From: Podospora anserina
Lineage: Eukaryota
DNA: 64,000 bases
Direction: 5' to 3'
Assembly: GCA_017654855.1 (NCBI GenBank)
Contig: CM030333.1
Span: 2,294,001 to 2,358,000 of the forward strand
Below are positions 39,379 to 44,383 of this stretch, one piece after another; positions within the stretch are counted from its first letter, which is position 1; the number at the start of each line of letters is the position of its first letter. Position numbers and translations under genes: made by a program. The notes beneath the pieces are model-generated. The model saw nothing but the letters and a program-made list of their open reading frames with translations. It was not told the origin of the DNA and searched no databases.

Positions 39379-41199
39379 ATGAGCGCCTCCGAGTCGCAGG
39401 AGGCTGCGGGGAGGCCGCAATCTCCCCGCAGCTTTGCCATTGCGCACCAGAGGCCGAGAAGCAGCTTTGTCGGGTGCTCCAAGATTGCCGACTACGAGGT
39501 GTTGGGGAAACTGGGCGAGGGTACCTTTGGGTAGGTGGTGGTTCTTTTGCCTTCCCATCTTGGCCGTGTCCGAAGCTGACATTGTTGCCCTACACAGAGA
39601 GGTTTACCGCGCGAGATCGAGAAAGACGGGTGCTTTGGTTGCGCTCAAGAAGATCATCATGCATAACGAAAAGGATGGCTTTCCGATTACGGCATTGAGA
39701 GAAATCAAGCTGCTCAAGCTACTGTCGCATCCAAACATCCTCCGACTGGAGGATATGGCAGTGGAACACCCGCCCAGGAGTGGTGAGTTGATGCTATCTG
39801 TCGAGGAGGTTCCAGGACATGCATGGCTAACAGGCGCCCTTTGCCAGCGGACAAACGAAAGCGACCCATCATGTACATGGTCACGCCCTACATGGACCAT
39901 GACCTGTCGGGCTTGCTCGACAACCCCTCGGTGACATTGACCGAGCCGCAAATCAAGTGCTACATGCAGCAACTGCTCCAGGGCCTGGAGTATCTACACG
40001 CCAATCGCATTTTGCACAGAGATATGAAGGCTGCCAACCTGTTGATCAACAACAAGGGCATTCTTCAGATTGCTGATTTCGGTCTTGCGAGACACTACGA
40101 GGGCAAGACACCACAGCCTGGTCACGGCGGTGGGGAAGGAACGCGTGACTACACTGCTTTGGTGGTCACGCGCTGGTACCGCCCGCCCGAGTTGTTGATG
40201 CATCTCAAAAGATACACCACATCGATTGACTTGTGGGGAGTTGGGTAGGCAGCCTGTGGTCGGTTCTTTGTTGCAAGGGATCATGCTGACAATGTCCCTA
40301 GGTGTGTTTTTGGCGAGATGCTAGTTGGCAAGCCCATTCTCACCGGCGAATCTGATGGGCACCAGTTGGAGTTGATATGGGACCTCTGCGGTACGCCCAC
40401 CATCGAGACAATGCCTGGGTTGAAAGACTTGCCTGGAGCCGAAGCGATGTCACCCAAGCCGCGACAAGGTAACCTGGGGCAAAGGTTCAGAGAATACGGC
40501 TCGGGTGCCATCTCGTTACTTCGAGAGCTTCTCAAGCTGGACTGGAGGAGCAGAATCAACGCTCATGACGCCCTGCAGCACCCTTACTTCCGCAACCCCC
40601 CATATCCCGCCAAGCCAGAAGAACTGCCGTCTTTCGAAGAAAGTCACGAATATGATCGTAAGAAGTACCATGAGAAAAGAACCGTGTTGCCTCCAGCGCC
40701 CAGGGGCGGTACCGTGGGCCGCGGTCCCAACAATGACGGCGATGGCTACAGGAACAGCGGTGGCCCCGGCGGAAGAGGCTATCCTCGGAACAACAACAAC
40801 CGCAATTTTGGTGGTCCGGCCCCGGCACCAGACGAGCGAGTGCCCGCTTGGCACAGAGACACCAGGCTTCCACCGCGCCCACCTCCACCTGCAGACTATG
40901 GCAACGGCCGTGATCGAGCTCCTCGTGGAGGTGGCGGAGGAAATCGTCAGGACGTCGATACGTATATCCCCAGTTATGATAGGGACGCTCCAAGACGAGA
41001 CGATCGGCGGAGGGACGACAGGCGAGACCGCGGAGGCCCAGGGGACAGGAGGAGGGGGGATTATGATGACCGCACAAGGAGCAATCGCACGCGCAGCAGA
41101 AGTCGGTCACCTCTGCCGCCAAGAGACCGCGATAGGGACAGGGACAGGGACAGGGACAGAGATCGGCCACCTCGCGATGGTCCACCGCATCCTAGATAG
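39379..41199 (+). CDS. BUR1: Bur1/Sgv1 (CDK9-like) cyclin-dependent kinase
   Basis: [37 protein letters not shown] (PITALRE), [29 protein letters not shown] and an RD/RS-rich tail. Three introns. Stop TAG 41197-41199. Confidence 0.95.
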
Positions 41200-41953
41200 G
41201 TTCAGGGTCGCAGAGGCCAGGAGCAGGGATACGGACGTAATCCCCGTCGGTAGGGAGGTGGGAATACCAAACGGGGCTCCAGGCGCTCGGGGGAGAATGA
41301 GCAACCCAGACCGGGGTCTGGCGGTCATGAGCAGAGGCCTGAGGGGGGAGGGGGGTTGGGTGGCTCTACATCACGGGCTGGACGTCAAAGCAATCCGGCA
41401 CCAGTAGCAAACAGGAGGCGAATCCCATTGTACAGTCCTGATAGACCTATTCCATCGATTGAAGCAGAGCCGCTAGCACCCTCACAATTGCGCCCGTCAC
41501 GCTCGCCGTCACGCTCGTTGTCACTCAACTCATGCAATCGACAATTGCTCGTCCAAGCAAGCGGCCGAAGCCGATCTTTTGCTTCTGGTGATTTTTCGGA
41601 TCCGGAGCTGCCTGCAGACCCACCACGTAGACAATCTCTTCTTTCTCGGGTCGTTCAGCCTGAGGATGTAGTTGAGCAAGCACCCGAGGAGACAGCTGAG
41701 CAACCATCCGAGGACGCAGCGGAGAGACCACGGCAGCGTGTTAAATTACCGCCTTTGCCATCACCGCTCGGATCGTCGGTCGAAAGACTTCTTGGGCTGA
41801 GAACAGCCAGTGAGTCCTTGGATCTGAGTCTAGGAACAAGCAGGGCTCGGGCTGGCATAGCCAGGTCGAGGGTGCTGGCTGATGAGGACGGCTCGTCCGC
41901 AGTGGTGACTCGCCCTCGTTCGCATCAGCATCATCCGGGAGGCGGAATCGGGG

Positions 41954-42844
41954 ATGTTTAGGGGGGTGGGTTGGAGACGCCGGCATAGTCAAGAAGAGAT
42001 TGAGCGGGCGGCTAGGGTGTTGGGTATGCCGGTGCCGGTGCCGGGGTCAAGGGGAAGCAGTAGAGGGAGGGTTCTTCCGACTGATGGTGGGTGGGAGAGG
42101 TGCTCTACGTCGAGTTCGGGAGAGGTGGAGAGTACACGACCGTCGGTGGTGCCGCCGCGGAGAAGTGGGCAGAGAAGAAGTCGGAGGCCGGGTGATGGTT
42201 GGGAGGCGGATGATGAGTTGCGGAAGGGGTCGGGAGAGAGGTCGGAGGAGGAAATTGCCTGGTCGGTGGGGCCTGAGGAACGGCCGAGCACACCGCCGAG
42301 GGTTGGGTTTTGTGAGGGTGAGGGTGGTGAGGAGGGGGGTGGTGAGCAAGAGGGGAGTGGTGAAGAGGATGGTGGTGAGCAAGGAGAAAAGGGTGGTGAT
42401 GATAAGAAGAGAAAGAGGTCGAGGTCTCCTGGCGGGTCTGAGAGGCAAGGCAAGAAGAGAAGGAGGGGGTCAAAACCACCGTCTGCTGAAGCGTCTGAGG
42501 AGTCAGAGGTTGACTTGAATGATAATCCGTCTGCTGAAGCACCAGAGGAGCGGTCTGATGTCGAAATGGATGATGAGGAAGTTGATGATGAACCGGCTGA
42601 GGAGCAGGCCGAGGTTCAAATGGATGACGAGCAAACTGATGATGAATCCCCTGCTCAACCACAAGCCCCTCCTCAAGCTCAACCCCCTCCTCCACCTCAA
42701 CTTCCTCCTCAACCAAGCCCTGTCACGAGACGATCAACAAGGAGCAGTACCGCACGGGAGCCTGGTTTCTATGCTGAGGTAAACACGAGCACTGGGCGTA
42801 AGAACAGTAGTAGAAATAATCACTGGCGCGGGAGATTCGGGTGA
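41954..42844 (+). CDS. Low-complexity acidic/basic ORF (296 aa), either an orphan gene or the distal part of a BUR1 extension
   Basis: Long ORF with NLS-like KKRKRSRS and GKKRRR, and internally repeated PSAEA(S/P)EE…V(E/Q)MDDE units. No recognisable domain. Confidence 0.4.
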   Translation: MFRGVGWRRRHSQEEIERAARVLGMPVPVPGSRGSSRGRVLPTDGGWERCSTSSSGEVESTRPSVVPPRRSGQRRSRRPGDGWEADDELRKGSGERSEEEIAWSVGPEERPSTPPRVGFCEGEGGEEGGGEQEGSGEEDGGEQGEKGGDDKKRKRSRSPGGSERQGKKRRRGSKPPSAEASEESEVDLNDNPSAEAPEERSDVEMDDEEVDDEPAEEQAEVQMDDEQTDDESPAQPQAPPQAQPPPPPQLPPQPSPVTRRSTRSSTAREPGFYAEVNTSTGRKNSSRNNHWRGRFG

Positions 42845-43288
42845 TTAGGATATAGACACCCAGAAAAGCGTGAATTTTGGTGTGGCTTGCAGCTGGCTTC
42901 TGGAATTTGGTCAACAAGCGAGGAGTATTAGTAATGTGTAAAAGTCATGTTTGGAGAGGGTTTTAGATGCATTCTGAAAGTGTCTGCGTGTGGTTTTCTT
43001 CAGAGTAAGTTCGAAAGAACGGAGGAGAATTGCATACTTGTTTTCAGGTTGTGCAGCCATTTCAACATCGTGTTCAGTTGTGAATGTAACCTTGTGCGAT
43101 ACTGGTGCTGTTGATGTTATAGTGAATTCTCTCGCAAGTAGTTACGTCTCTGAATGACCATCCCCAGCCCCATCACGTCACAACAAAAACTCATCTTCTT
43201 CCATCCAAGTCAGAATCAAATTACTACTACGCTTTTAAAACCGAACCTCTGTATCAACCACCCCTCCTTCTAGTCCCTCACCCCATCA

Positions 43289-44383
43289 TCAAAACAACGA
43301 ACCAAACCACCCTTCCGTCTCCTCCACCCTCTCACGCACCTCCTCCTCTTTGTCCTCTTCACTCTCACCCCCAGCCCCCTCCTCCTCATCCGCTTCATAC
43401 TCCTTCTCCTTCTTAATCTCCTTACTTACCCTCCTATTCTGTTCCAACATTGAAAAGGGCTTATCCCGACTATACCCCCGCTTCTTCTTGTTCTTCTTAT
43501 CCACATCCCCCTCATACGCTTTAATCTCCTCAGCTTCCTTTATCTTGTTTAATATACTTGTCAGTTCCGGCTCCGCTTCCTCGTCATTCTTGACAATAAT
43601 CTCTTCCCTCCCCTTCTTCAACCTCTTCCTCGCGCTACTCCCCAACTTCTTCTTCGTGGCAGTAGTCTCACTCTCCACAGCAACATCCTCCCCCATTAAA
43701 TACTTCAAATCATCACCCCCAAACCCCTCACCCTGAAACTCATTCTTCCCCTTGACCTTCTTCCTCTTCTGCTTCTTCTTGTTCCTCACCCCTTCCCCCT
43801 TCCCCCCACCAGCTTCGGTCCCAGCAATATCACTCTCCCTCTCATCCCAATCCCCCCTCTCCTTCCCACTCCCCTCCCCCTCAACCTCCTCAATAACCCC
43901 CAAATCCAACATCGCCAACCCAGCCTCGTCGACTCTCTCCTTCCACCCCATCCCCCGTCTCGTATCGCCATACATCGTCCCCACCACAAACGGCATACCC
44001 TTCCTCCTTTCAAACTCCCACTCCTCCCACCACCCATCCCACCTCCTCTTGTCCTCCCCCACCGTCAACTGTATCCTCCTCCTCAACCACCTCCAATCCA
44101 CCCCCGTCTGACGACAAAAAGCCTGCTCCGTATCCAGCAGCACCGTCCGATGCGGCGCCAGAAAGCAGATAACATCCCAAATCAACGCCGGGGCAAAATG
44201 CCTGTAGCCGATCGCCACAAAATAGTACAGCACCCTCAAGACAAGTAAAAACGGCGTGGCGACAAAGAGCAAAAGCCGGAGAAGATACCTCAGAATGGAG
44301 CCAACAAGGGAAAAGACGCCGAGGAGGTAGGAAATCACCTAGTATATGACGAGGAGGAGTGCAATCAGTCCAACAATCTTGTG
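43289..44383 (-). other. In-frame continuation of the 45117 gene beyond TAG (hydrophobic segments plus charged tail), broken only by TAG 44339-44341
   Basis: HKIVGLIALLLVIY*VISYLLGVFSLVGSILRYLLRLL… runs open to TGA 43289-43291. It has no ATG near its 5' end. Confidence 0.6.

Follow-up and report, generated by a model that had tools for sequence, protein, structure and literature searches.

Does the BUR1/CDK9-type kinase gene of Podospora anserina end where its stop codon says it ends? Past this codon the reading frame remains open over a considerable distance, and a first reading, made from the sequence alone, had proposed that RNA editing of the interrupting stops would create a long, stage-specific isoform of the kinase, reaching 254 codons further and possibly graded in length. 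The observation behind this proposal is confirmed. Translated from 40318 to 42030, the kinase frame displays exactly the run of stops that had been described in the window (the whole stretch of 64,000 nucleotides that was analysed), namely four TAGs (41197-41199, 41251-41253, 41959-41961 and 41986-41988) and then a TGA (42001-42003). The ORF 41356..41961 does lie in the frame of the kinase; it has 201 codons and begins with TTG. The stop-free stretch of this frame from 41254 to 41958 amounts to 235 codons and is devoid of a start, no in-frame ATG being present between 41200 and 41958. The features discussed below are collected in Table 1.

Table 1. Features of the kinase locus and of the region behind it (window coordinates).
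Feature	Position	Strand	Basis or remark
BUR1/CDK9-type kinase gene	39379..41199	+	543 codons, 4 exons
Kinase exons	39379-39530, 39598-39782, 39848-40244, 40302-41199	+	
Native TAG stop of the kinase; candidate A-to-I stop-loss site A41198	41197..41199	+	
17 codons and second in-frame TAG (41251-41253)	41200..41253	+	translation
Probable 3' UTR of the kinase mRNA	41200..41343	+	contig ends; X1 continues beyond
G6-A-G6 run, of variable length among close relatives, altering the frame relation across it	41343..41355	+	
Probable leader of the downstream transcript	41356..41953	+	second contig; contains most of the start-less frame 41254-41958
Upstream ATG frames in the leader	41532 (19 codons), 41666 (ATG-TAG), 41882 (8 codons)	+	
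Downstream gene, function unassigned	41954..42844	+	296 codons; confined to the P. anserina species complex

Contigs from four of the 23 RNA sequencing runs listed (X1, X12, X13 and X14, one from each of four studies, all spliced) contain the three GT..AG joints of the kinase gene, without exception. Compared with named BUR1 proteins, the last exon has its best listed match in Triangularia setosa (90% identity, E 2e-165), where BUR1 also has 543 residues; used alone as a query, the same exon retrieves the Pfam family Pkinase weakly (E 0.017). As judged from sequence comparison, the gene is a member of the BUR1/Sgv1/CDK9 family: its nearest named relatives are called BUR1 or bur-1, and its tail can be aligned to the very end in 15 of 15 orthologues. 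In close relatives this tail has lost 3 nt at one place and carries three substitutions, none of which alters the residue encoded in the kinase frame.

The place where these proteins stop is remarkably constant. In all 15 named BUR1 of the Sordariales the C-terminus comes directly after the RD repeat, as ..YRR, ..HYR or ..HPR, and of 79 metagenome loci 65 close in the same manner; in 12 the contig gives out first, and two have no canonical tail. The alignments thus make TAG 41197 the ancestral end of BUR1. What might be translated behind it in other species varies between 0 and 61 codons, with sequences that are unrelated to each other. Within P. anserina's close circle, three relatives keep the translation of another frame unchanged over 41200..41253.

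How unusual is it, then, to find such an open frame behind a stop? The segment 41200-41958 was shuffled 20000 times with its dinucleotides preserved. The kinase frame stayed open for at least 235 codons in 64 of the shuffles, a number that rises to 205 when an open stretch in any of the six frames is counted; 103 shuffles had no more than one stop, and this a TAG. In the real sequence the other five frames have between 4 and 16 stops each. The open frame is therefore locally unusual (about 0.3 to 1%), yet not extraordinary where every gene gets inspected. As a case in point, 87 stops in the window close at least 150 open codons, and seven of them, that of the kinase included, have a stretch of at least 200 codons within two intervals; among these seven, at least one besides the kinase stop, at 40246, falls in frame within an intron; two overlap a long ORF of the opposite strand. 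Four features of the frame nevertheless sit uneasily with an accident: it is rarer than the shuffles would have it, it is in phase with the kinase, it lacks methionine, and the stops that interrupt it are all TAG.

The composition of the extension had been likened to the disordered, R/S/P-rich tail of the kinase itself. This likeness proves unspecific. With 14% R, 13% S, 12% G and 11% P, the extension stays near what random codons of equal base composition would give (13, 9, 10.5 and 8%, respectively) and is unlike the kinase tail, with its 24% R, 15% D, 15% P and 14% G. Its GC3 (0.46) is below its own GC1 and GC2, and compares with 0.63 in the kinase domain exon, but such frame-specific GC values are not decisive. 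Open frames that arise by chance in GC-rich untranslated DNA, or that happen to stay open alongside or opposite real coding regions, share the GC-richness of this one and its paucity of T-rich triplets. Frames of this kind are found nearby: 40505..41407 (300 codons, across the kinase tail but not in its frame) and, on the minus strand, 40556..41185 (209 codons) and 42105..42716 (203 codons). The extension frame differs in that no known coding frame underlies it and in being rarer than the shuffles would have it.

We looked for a carrier of the extension in several collections. Among 1.84 billion representative proteins, the extension retrieved only the window's ORF of 201 aa and an ORF from a close relative; the latter is read in a different frame, across the kinase tail, and overlaps just 54 residues of the extension. 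A search of BUR1-like proteins from 303 to 966 aa gave 623 matches, and the 120 listed cover at most 53% of the query, of which the kinase part makes up 54%. With the 201-aa ORF as the query and lengths near its own, the search returned this ORF, from 19 contigs and with the same sequence in each, besides two short proteins that overlap it in part. Pfam has no family for the extension, for the 201-aa ORF or for the 296-aa ORF downstream, while Rfam, searched over 40900-43300 with E up to 1, yielded three matches, all at chance level and well short of their gathering scores. These results speak against restorative editing of the type known from PUK1, in which, as PMC4817773 and PMC10776026 describe it (PUK1, AMD1; 71 genes), an in-frame UAG is likewise read as UGG to make a longer protein. 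In genes of this type the sequence behind the premature stop is homologous to the remainder of the protein in other species; the BUR1 stop, by contrast, is the ancestral end, beyond which no orthologue continues and nothing is conserved.

Conservation of the extension frame in related genomes had been named as a check of the proposal, and the frame is not kept. The comparison was made on proteins and ORF calls of the relatives, and several of the changes are differences in homopolymer length, some of them possibly assembly errors. The first lies at the G run, which the relatives' ORFs cross in three ways, from window frame 2 to 2 (P0129 and P0132), from 2 to 1 (P0004) and from 2 to 0 (P0130); the A at 41349, in the middle of this run, is a G in relatives. 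More frame changes are seen in close relatives near 41449, 41810, 41900 and 41952. The protein annotated at NCBI for Podospora pseudopauciseta comprises three frame changes between 41882 and 42068, and since its genomic coordinates have no gap, these must be changes of length rather than introns. Because of such frame-shifting length changes, the frame of the kinase is not joined to the open frame in these sibling species.

The RNA contigs suggest where the transcripts end. It should be kept in mind that contig ends are a weak hint in this respect, and uncovered parts were not counted as silence. The contig of the kinase ends at 41272 in X12, at 41336 in X13 and at 41343 in X14, that is, in three of the four studies, although in X13 and X14 the break is at the G-rich run, where coverage may fall for technical reasons. 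In three of the four runs another contig sets in behind it, at 41356, 41358 or 41361. In X1 one contig is unbroken across 40301-42900, so that read-through transcripts are possible. Taken together, the contigs cover 41356-42900 without any splice joint; X12 leaves 41273-41357 uncovered, X13 and X14 have shorter gaps, and coverage of 42066-42417 is incomplete. The depth of the X12 contigs is 125 over the kinase and 53-55 downstream, depths of a kind that cannot rank genes. The sequence-only reading had itself named two observations that would speak against it, namely that the BUR1 mRNA always stops short of about 41400, or that the downstream ORF is a gene of its own. Both are largely what is seen, the X1 contig, which bridges the gap, being the exception.

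The ORF that follows is a separate gene, having its own ATG, annotations in three sibling Podospora species and coverage by RNA contigs. An identical protein of 296 residues is present in public collections, and its cluster comprises counterparts in Podospora comata (296 aa), P. pseudocomata (QC762_205525, 274 aa) and P. pseudopauciseta (QC763_205525, 321 aa). The ESM Atlas provided no usable neighbour for the 296-aa protein. Even within the annotated ORF the frames of the siblings differ, at about 42335 and 42717, which would fit a region that is, throughout, under little or no coding constraint. Its probable leader, which matches nothing in Pfam or Rfam, is depleted in ATG, with three observed where 7.7 are expected (Poisson 0.05).

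Putting these elements together, we consider it likely that the stop-free stretch is an accident, situated in the 3' end of the kinase gene and in the leader of the next gene, and that BUR1 ends at its ancestral UAG 41197. The order of elements behind this UAG would then be a short 3' UTR of about 75-145 nt, a G-rich spacer, longer or shorter depending on the sibling species, and a leader of about 600 nt. This leader would belong to a poorly conserved gene, transcribed separately, with 41954-42844 as its annotated ORF. As for the 235-codon frame, it would be a species-specific accident of a GC-rich and ATG-poor leader, without start, homologue or conserved frame link. The coordinates, the constant position of the stop, the lack of homologues, the frame breaks in relatives, the splice pattern and the ends of the contigs are observations; the boundaries of the transcripts, which we infer from the contigs, and the attribution of the open frame to chance are interpretation.

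An alternative of a more modest kind concerns only the first 54 nt behind the stop and is compatible with an accidental origin of the open frame. In fruiting bodies, a tRNA-type adenosine deaminase would edit A41198, turning UAG into UIG, which is read as UGG, and part of the BUR1 protein would thereby gain a tail reaching to UAG 41251. This putative tail, a tryptophan followed by 17 residues (18 in total, VQGRRGQEQGYGRNPRR), is the only one that a single edit could add. By analogy with FgDbf2, this disordered tail would lower the dosage of the kinase. We regard such editing as possible but doubtful. Stop-loss editing is established in Sordariomycetes, with FgDBF2 and 403 genes of Fusarium graminearum reported in PMC13123824, and the BUR1 site shares with that system, as presented there, a native UAG, a U at position -1 and a predicted hairpin loop. 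A disordered and poorly conserved extension is common to both, as is enrichment of TAG in the Sordariomycete-like orthologues. The mRNA of BUR1 differs from the described cases in that it seems to end some 75-145 nt past the stop.

The local context of A41198 (aga-UAG-guu) is permissive. In minimum-energy folds of both 41 and 61 nt, the adenosine is predicted to lie in a 5-nt hairpin loop, UAGGU. This hairpin is no more stable than those of shuffled sequences (z -0.65 and -1.44), so that its placement in a loop is permissive rather than diagnostic, and the frequency of loop placement, 9 of 17 TAG stops against 9 of 30 other BUR1 stops, does not differ significantly. As for the identity of the stop codon, TAG closes BUR1 in 14 of 21 distinct Sordariomycete-like loci and in 2 of 25 others (Fisher 4e-5), with the reservation that these loci are not phylogenetically independent. 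To be sure, TAG, TAA and TGA alternate at this place among close relatives (compare loci L010 and L011), and among the 16 distinct TAG loci there are 3 in which a tandem TAGTAA would cap any tail at one residue; like the tails of 0-61 codons with their unrelated sequences, this speaks against the short edited tail.

Further, indirect support comes from F. graminearum. Dataset S1 of Du et al. (2026; PMC13123824) contains an entry FG4G15700, 'cmgc cdk protein kinase', edited to 38% at CDS position 1619 (539 aa) with a coverage of 960 (Chr4:3446529), and it also places FGSG_07432 at Chr4:3513967. The BUR1 orthologue of this fungus, FgSGV1, is Fg07409 according to PMC3245316; FGSG_07432 is 23 locus numbers further on and 67 kb away from FG4G15700. 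The BUR1 proteins of Fusarium have 529-582 residues, several of them exactly 539, and some are named CMGC/CDK. By size, name and chromosomal place, FG4G15700 is thus probably FgSGV1. Our literature search retrieved neither FG4G15700 nor papers on BUR1 together with the kinome of F. graminearum, and '07409' does not occur in five supplement files of Liu et al. (2016; PMC4817773), although the original list of sites may still contain it. In P. anserina itself, ADAT genes are regulated during sexual development according to 10.1101/2024.12.09.627484, while a literature search on A-to-I editing in this species found no catalogue of sites. The RNA contigs of the four runs show no differing letters and no loose ends, but as contigs drop minority variants they are silent on editing. 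It has also been argued that most stop-loss editing is non-adaptive error (Li and Zhang, 2026). The retention of TAG, the editing of the probable Fusarium orthologue and the predicted hairpin loop at the UAG point, all three, to conserved editing of BUR1. The wider view, that BUR1, an essential transcription-elongation kinase, is a conserved stop-loss target across Sordariomycetes and that in Podospora fruiting bodies an 18-residue disordered tail would tune its dosage in ascospore formation, as for Dbf2, appears to us rather unlikely.

A second alternative attaches the start-less frame to the gene downstream, of which it would be either a portion whose translation starts at a non-AUG codon of the downstream mRNA, or the remnant of a once longer N-terminal coding region. 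The frame is contained wholly in the second RNA contig, and its terminal stop (41959) overlaps the ATG of the downstream ORF (41954), which could allow termination and re-initiation. In two relatives (P0002 and P0128) an ORF leads from about 41810 directly into the downstream ORF, the annotation in P. pseudopauciseta starts at an ATG corresponding to 41882, and the depletion of stops is confined to one frame. All this has to be weighed against 235 codons without an ATG, against homologues restricted to the closest relatives, and against the low third-position GC and the sibling frame differences at about 42335 and 42717 mentioned above. We find this connection improbable.

There remains the long isoform, which would arise from read-through transcripts edited at both UAG 41197 and UAG 41251, adding 253 residues up to UAG 41959: the frame is indeed open, in phase with the kinase and rarer than in shuffles, both TAGs follow a U and are placed in predicted loops (that at 41251 of 6 nt, on a weak 2-bp stem) and the X1 contig links the two regions, but the native stop is conserved, no carrier of the extension was found, the frame link is lost at the G run in at least two relatives and again further on, two edits would be required on one molecule where the stop-loss tails described in PMC13123824 are short, and the tails of other species do not exceed 61 codons, so that we hold it to be very improbable. 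This isoform, like isoforms of graded length, is contradicted, in addition, by kinase contigs that stop before 41344 in three of the four studies and by the second contig and the separately annotated gene to which the downstream part belongs.

What does this mean for the biology of these fungi? If true, the long isoform would have been remarkable, since two RNA edits would have equipped an essential RNA polymerase II kinase with a sizeable stage-specific domain. The evidence points instead to an ordinary arrangement, in which the native stop is followed by a short 3' UTR and, behind it, the leader of the downstream gene. For those who scan fungal genomes rich in GC, the case is a useful warning: a long frame interrupted by TAG only, behind a gene, is insufficient, and such frames need conservation in sibling species together with an mRNA that reaches them. 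The enrichment of TAG at the BUR1 stop and the presence of a probable Fusarium orthologue on a list of stop-loss sites make the short tail a testable case of a known mechanism, of modest value.

TAG 41197 is the ancestral end of the BUR1 protein. Three GT..AG joints define the kinase gene in RNA contigs from four runs of four studies, and its last exon matches named BUR1/bur-1 kinases, the best match being that of Triangularia setosa (543 aa, 90% identity, E 2e-165). In each of the 15 named Sordariales orthologues inspected, the C-terminus comes directly after the RS/RD repeat (..YRR, ..HYR, ..HPR or similar). The same kind of end is found at 65 of 79 metagenome loci with BUR1 relatives, while 12 of the remaining 14 run off their contig and two are without the canonical tail. 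Because orthologue and metagenome proteins terminate at this same place, a premature stop 'restored' by editing is excluded. The RD-rich tail of the kinase is overlapped by two further open frames: one of 300 codons in another frame (40505-41407, +), reported as a protein by automatic gene callers on public assemblies (P0129 and P0131), and one of 209 codons on the opposite strand (40556-41185, -).

Features of the kinase gene and of the region that follows it
Feature	Coordinates	Strand	Basis
BUR1 kinase gene, 543 codons, four exons	39379-39530, 39598-39782, 39848-40244, 40302-41199	+	RNA joints and sequence
Later kinase-frame stops	TAG 41251, TAG 41959, TAG 41986, TGA 42001	+	translation
ORF with TTG start, 201 codons, in phase with kinase	41356..41961	+	ORF list
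Two ATGs in another frame, both closing at 41407	41297, 41327	+	ATG listing
ATG, 19 codons, presumed leader of downstream gene	41532	+	ATG listing
ATG then TAG at once, A at -3, presumed downstream-gene leader	41666-41671	+	ATG listing
ATG, 8 codons, presumed downstream-gene leader	41882	+	ATG listing
ATG, 296 codons, start of downstream ORF	41954	+	ATG listing
Downstream ORF, 296 codons, low-complexity product	41954-42844	+	

Read from 40318, the kinase frame meets its first stop at TAG 41197, and translation reproduces the series of TAG and TGA codons and the in-phase ORF that the sequence-only reading had reported behind it. The kinase frame holds no ATG in 41200-41958. Among 20000 dinucleotide-preserving shuffles of this interval, 64 keep the kinase frame open for at least 235 codons, 205 keep at least one of the six frames open that long, and 103 have at most one stop, TAG only, in the kinase frame; the other five real frames contain 4 to 16 stops. 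The open frame is therefore uncommon on the local scale (about 0.3 to 1%), a rarity that is expected by chance when every gene end is scanned. Of the 87 stops in the window that terminate a stretch of at least 150 codons, 7 are followed by one of at least 200 codons within two intervals. TAG 41197 is itself among the 7; at least one other is an in-frame intron stop (40246), and two lie over a long ORF of the other strand.

The extension had been likened to the disordered tail of the kinase, a likeness that does not hold: it is unlike the R/D/P/G tail, and its amino-acid composition resembles what random codons of equal base composition would give. The 253-residue extension, with TAG translated as W, was compared with 1.84 billion representative proteins. 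Its matches were limited to the 201-aa ORF of the window itself and to P0004, an ORF of a close relative that was read in a different frame across the kinase tail and has only 54 residues in common with the extension. When the last exon and the extension were used together (against proteins of 303-966 aa), 623 matches were found; the 120 listed each cover at most 53% of the query, of which the kinase part alone makes up 54%. At near lengths, the 201-aa ORF recovered its own sequence, identical on 19 contigs, plus two small overlaps.

Frames in sibling species were derived by mapping proteins (ORF calls) back onto the window, and several of the differences are in homopolymer length and may include assembly errors. 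Between the kinase and the downstream gene lies a G6-A-G6 run (41343-41355) whose length varies among close relatives, A41349 being G there. In window frames it is crossed three ways: from 2 to 2 (P0129, P0132), 2 to 1 (P0004) and 2 to 0 (P0130). In P0004 and P0130, a ribosome passing both TAGs would therefore hit a stop near 41405-41440. In P0004 the frame is lost once more past 41448, and shifts also occur near 41810, 41900, 41952 and 42335 in P0002 and P0128. The P. pseudopauciseta protein annotated at NCBI has three frame changes between 41882 and 42068; these are length changes, not introns, since its genomic coordinates are gapless. The kinase tail of the same relatives differs by a single 3-nt deletion and by three substitutions, each of them third-position and synonymous in the kinase frame. 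By these calls the extension frame is not kept among the siblings.

Four sequencing runs (X1, X12, X13, X14) carry no RNA label on record, and their contigs are nonetheless spliced. Kinase contigs extend to 41272 (X12), 41336 (X13) and 41343 (X14), and a second contig starts at 41358, 41361 and 41356, respectively, extending to about 42058-42078; two of these breaks fall at the G run, where technical coverage loss is possible. In X1 a single contig spans 40301 to 42900, but a contig over two genes does not demonstrate one transcript. Across the four runs there is no splice joint in 41356-42900. Coinciding contig ends across studies are a weak hint of a kinase 3' UTR of ~75-145 nt and of a second transcript from near 41356, whose presumed leader is ATG-poor (3 observed against 7.7 expected, P 0.05). 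In X13 and X14 cover is thin or broken at 42084-42417, in the G-rich central part of the downstream ORF (depth 5-7, as against 17-33 on the flanks), which could have a technical cause or reflect two overlapping transcripts.

The downstream gene would be separately transcribed and lineage-restricted. Its product has a basic N-terminus, an acidic, glycine-rich centre with KKRKR and KKRRR motifs and a P/Q-rich end. It groups with proteins annotated in Podospora comata, P. pseudocomata (QC762_205525) and P. pseudopauciseta (QC763_205525), which places the window in the Podospora anserina species complex. It has no Pfam family, no Atlas neighbour and, at near lengths, no relative beyond that complex. 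Its own frame, too, is not constant between siblings, with shifts at about 42335 and 42717; the differences affect the N-terminal 63 residues in P. pseudopauciseta, the C-terminal end in P. pseudocomata and the middle in two further relatives. It looks as if this were a young or decaying gene, and the entire 41200-42900 region seems to be under weak coding constraint. Just past it lies a convergent, E/K-rich ORF of 349 codons (43289-44338, -). The most plausible reading of the open frame is that of an accident spread over the kinase 3' UTR, the variable G run and the downstream-gene leader. A stage-specific long BUR1/CDK9 isoform obtained by editing of TAGs finds no support, the stop being the native end, the extension having no homologue beyond close relatives in the protein searches and its frame being broken in siblings; nor does a set of isoforms of graded length.

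A shorter product is a different matter. A single edit at A41198 would add W and 17 residues, ending at UAG 41251, an outcome we hold to be possible rather than probable. RNA contigs show no differing letters; they discard minority variants and are thus uninformative on editing. Stop-loss A-to-I editing is already described, for 403 F. graminearum genes, by Du et al. (2026, PMC13123824), who found that protein dosage is lowered by the Dbf2 tail. Most stop-loss events are argued to be errors by Li and Zhang (2026), who count 4292 genes with a TAG stop. Dataset S1 of Du et al. has no bur1, bur-1, sgv1 or cdk9 entry. It lists FG4G15700, a 'cmgc cdk protein kinase' at Chr4:3446529, with an edited stop at CDS position 1619 (539 aa; 38% editing, coverage 960), and FGSG_07432 at Chr4:3513967. 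FgSGV1, the BUR1 orthologue, is the essential Fg07409 (PMC3245316). FGSG_07432 is 23 locus numbers from Fg07409 and 67 kb from FG4G15700; Fusarium BUR1 proteins are 529-582 aa long, several being 539 aa and some named CMGC/CDK. From locus position, protein size and name, we infer that FG4G15700 is BUR1.

Stop codons were counted at 46 distinct metagenome loci (the 65 reaching the conserved end, minus 19 duplicates removed by eye; for example L019:1434 and L075:3435). BUR1 ends in TAG 14 times, TGA 5 and TAA 2 in 21 Sordariomycete-like loci (best named match a Sordariomycete at >=65% identity), as against TAG 2, TGA 17 and TAA 6 in 25 other ascomycete-like ones (Fisher 4e-5, a probability overstated, as the loci are related). 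Such TAG enrichment is the pattern described for DBF2 by Du et al. (PMC13123824). Near-identical loci differ in their stop (L010 TAG, L011 TAA), in-frame tails past TAG run from 0 to 61 codons with unrelated sequences, and at three TAG loci a tandem TAGTAA blocks the tail immediately. A41198 has U at -1 and is predicted to sit in a hairpin loop of 5 nt, in a fold no better than shuffles; such placement is found for 9 of 17 TAG stops and 9 of 30 others, which is not significant. A short edited tail on BUR1 is a reasonable candidate of the known stop-loss class.
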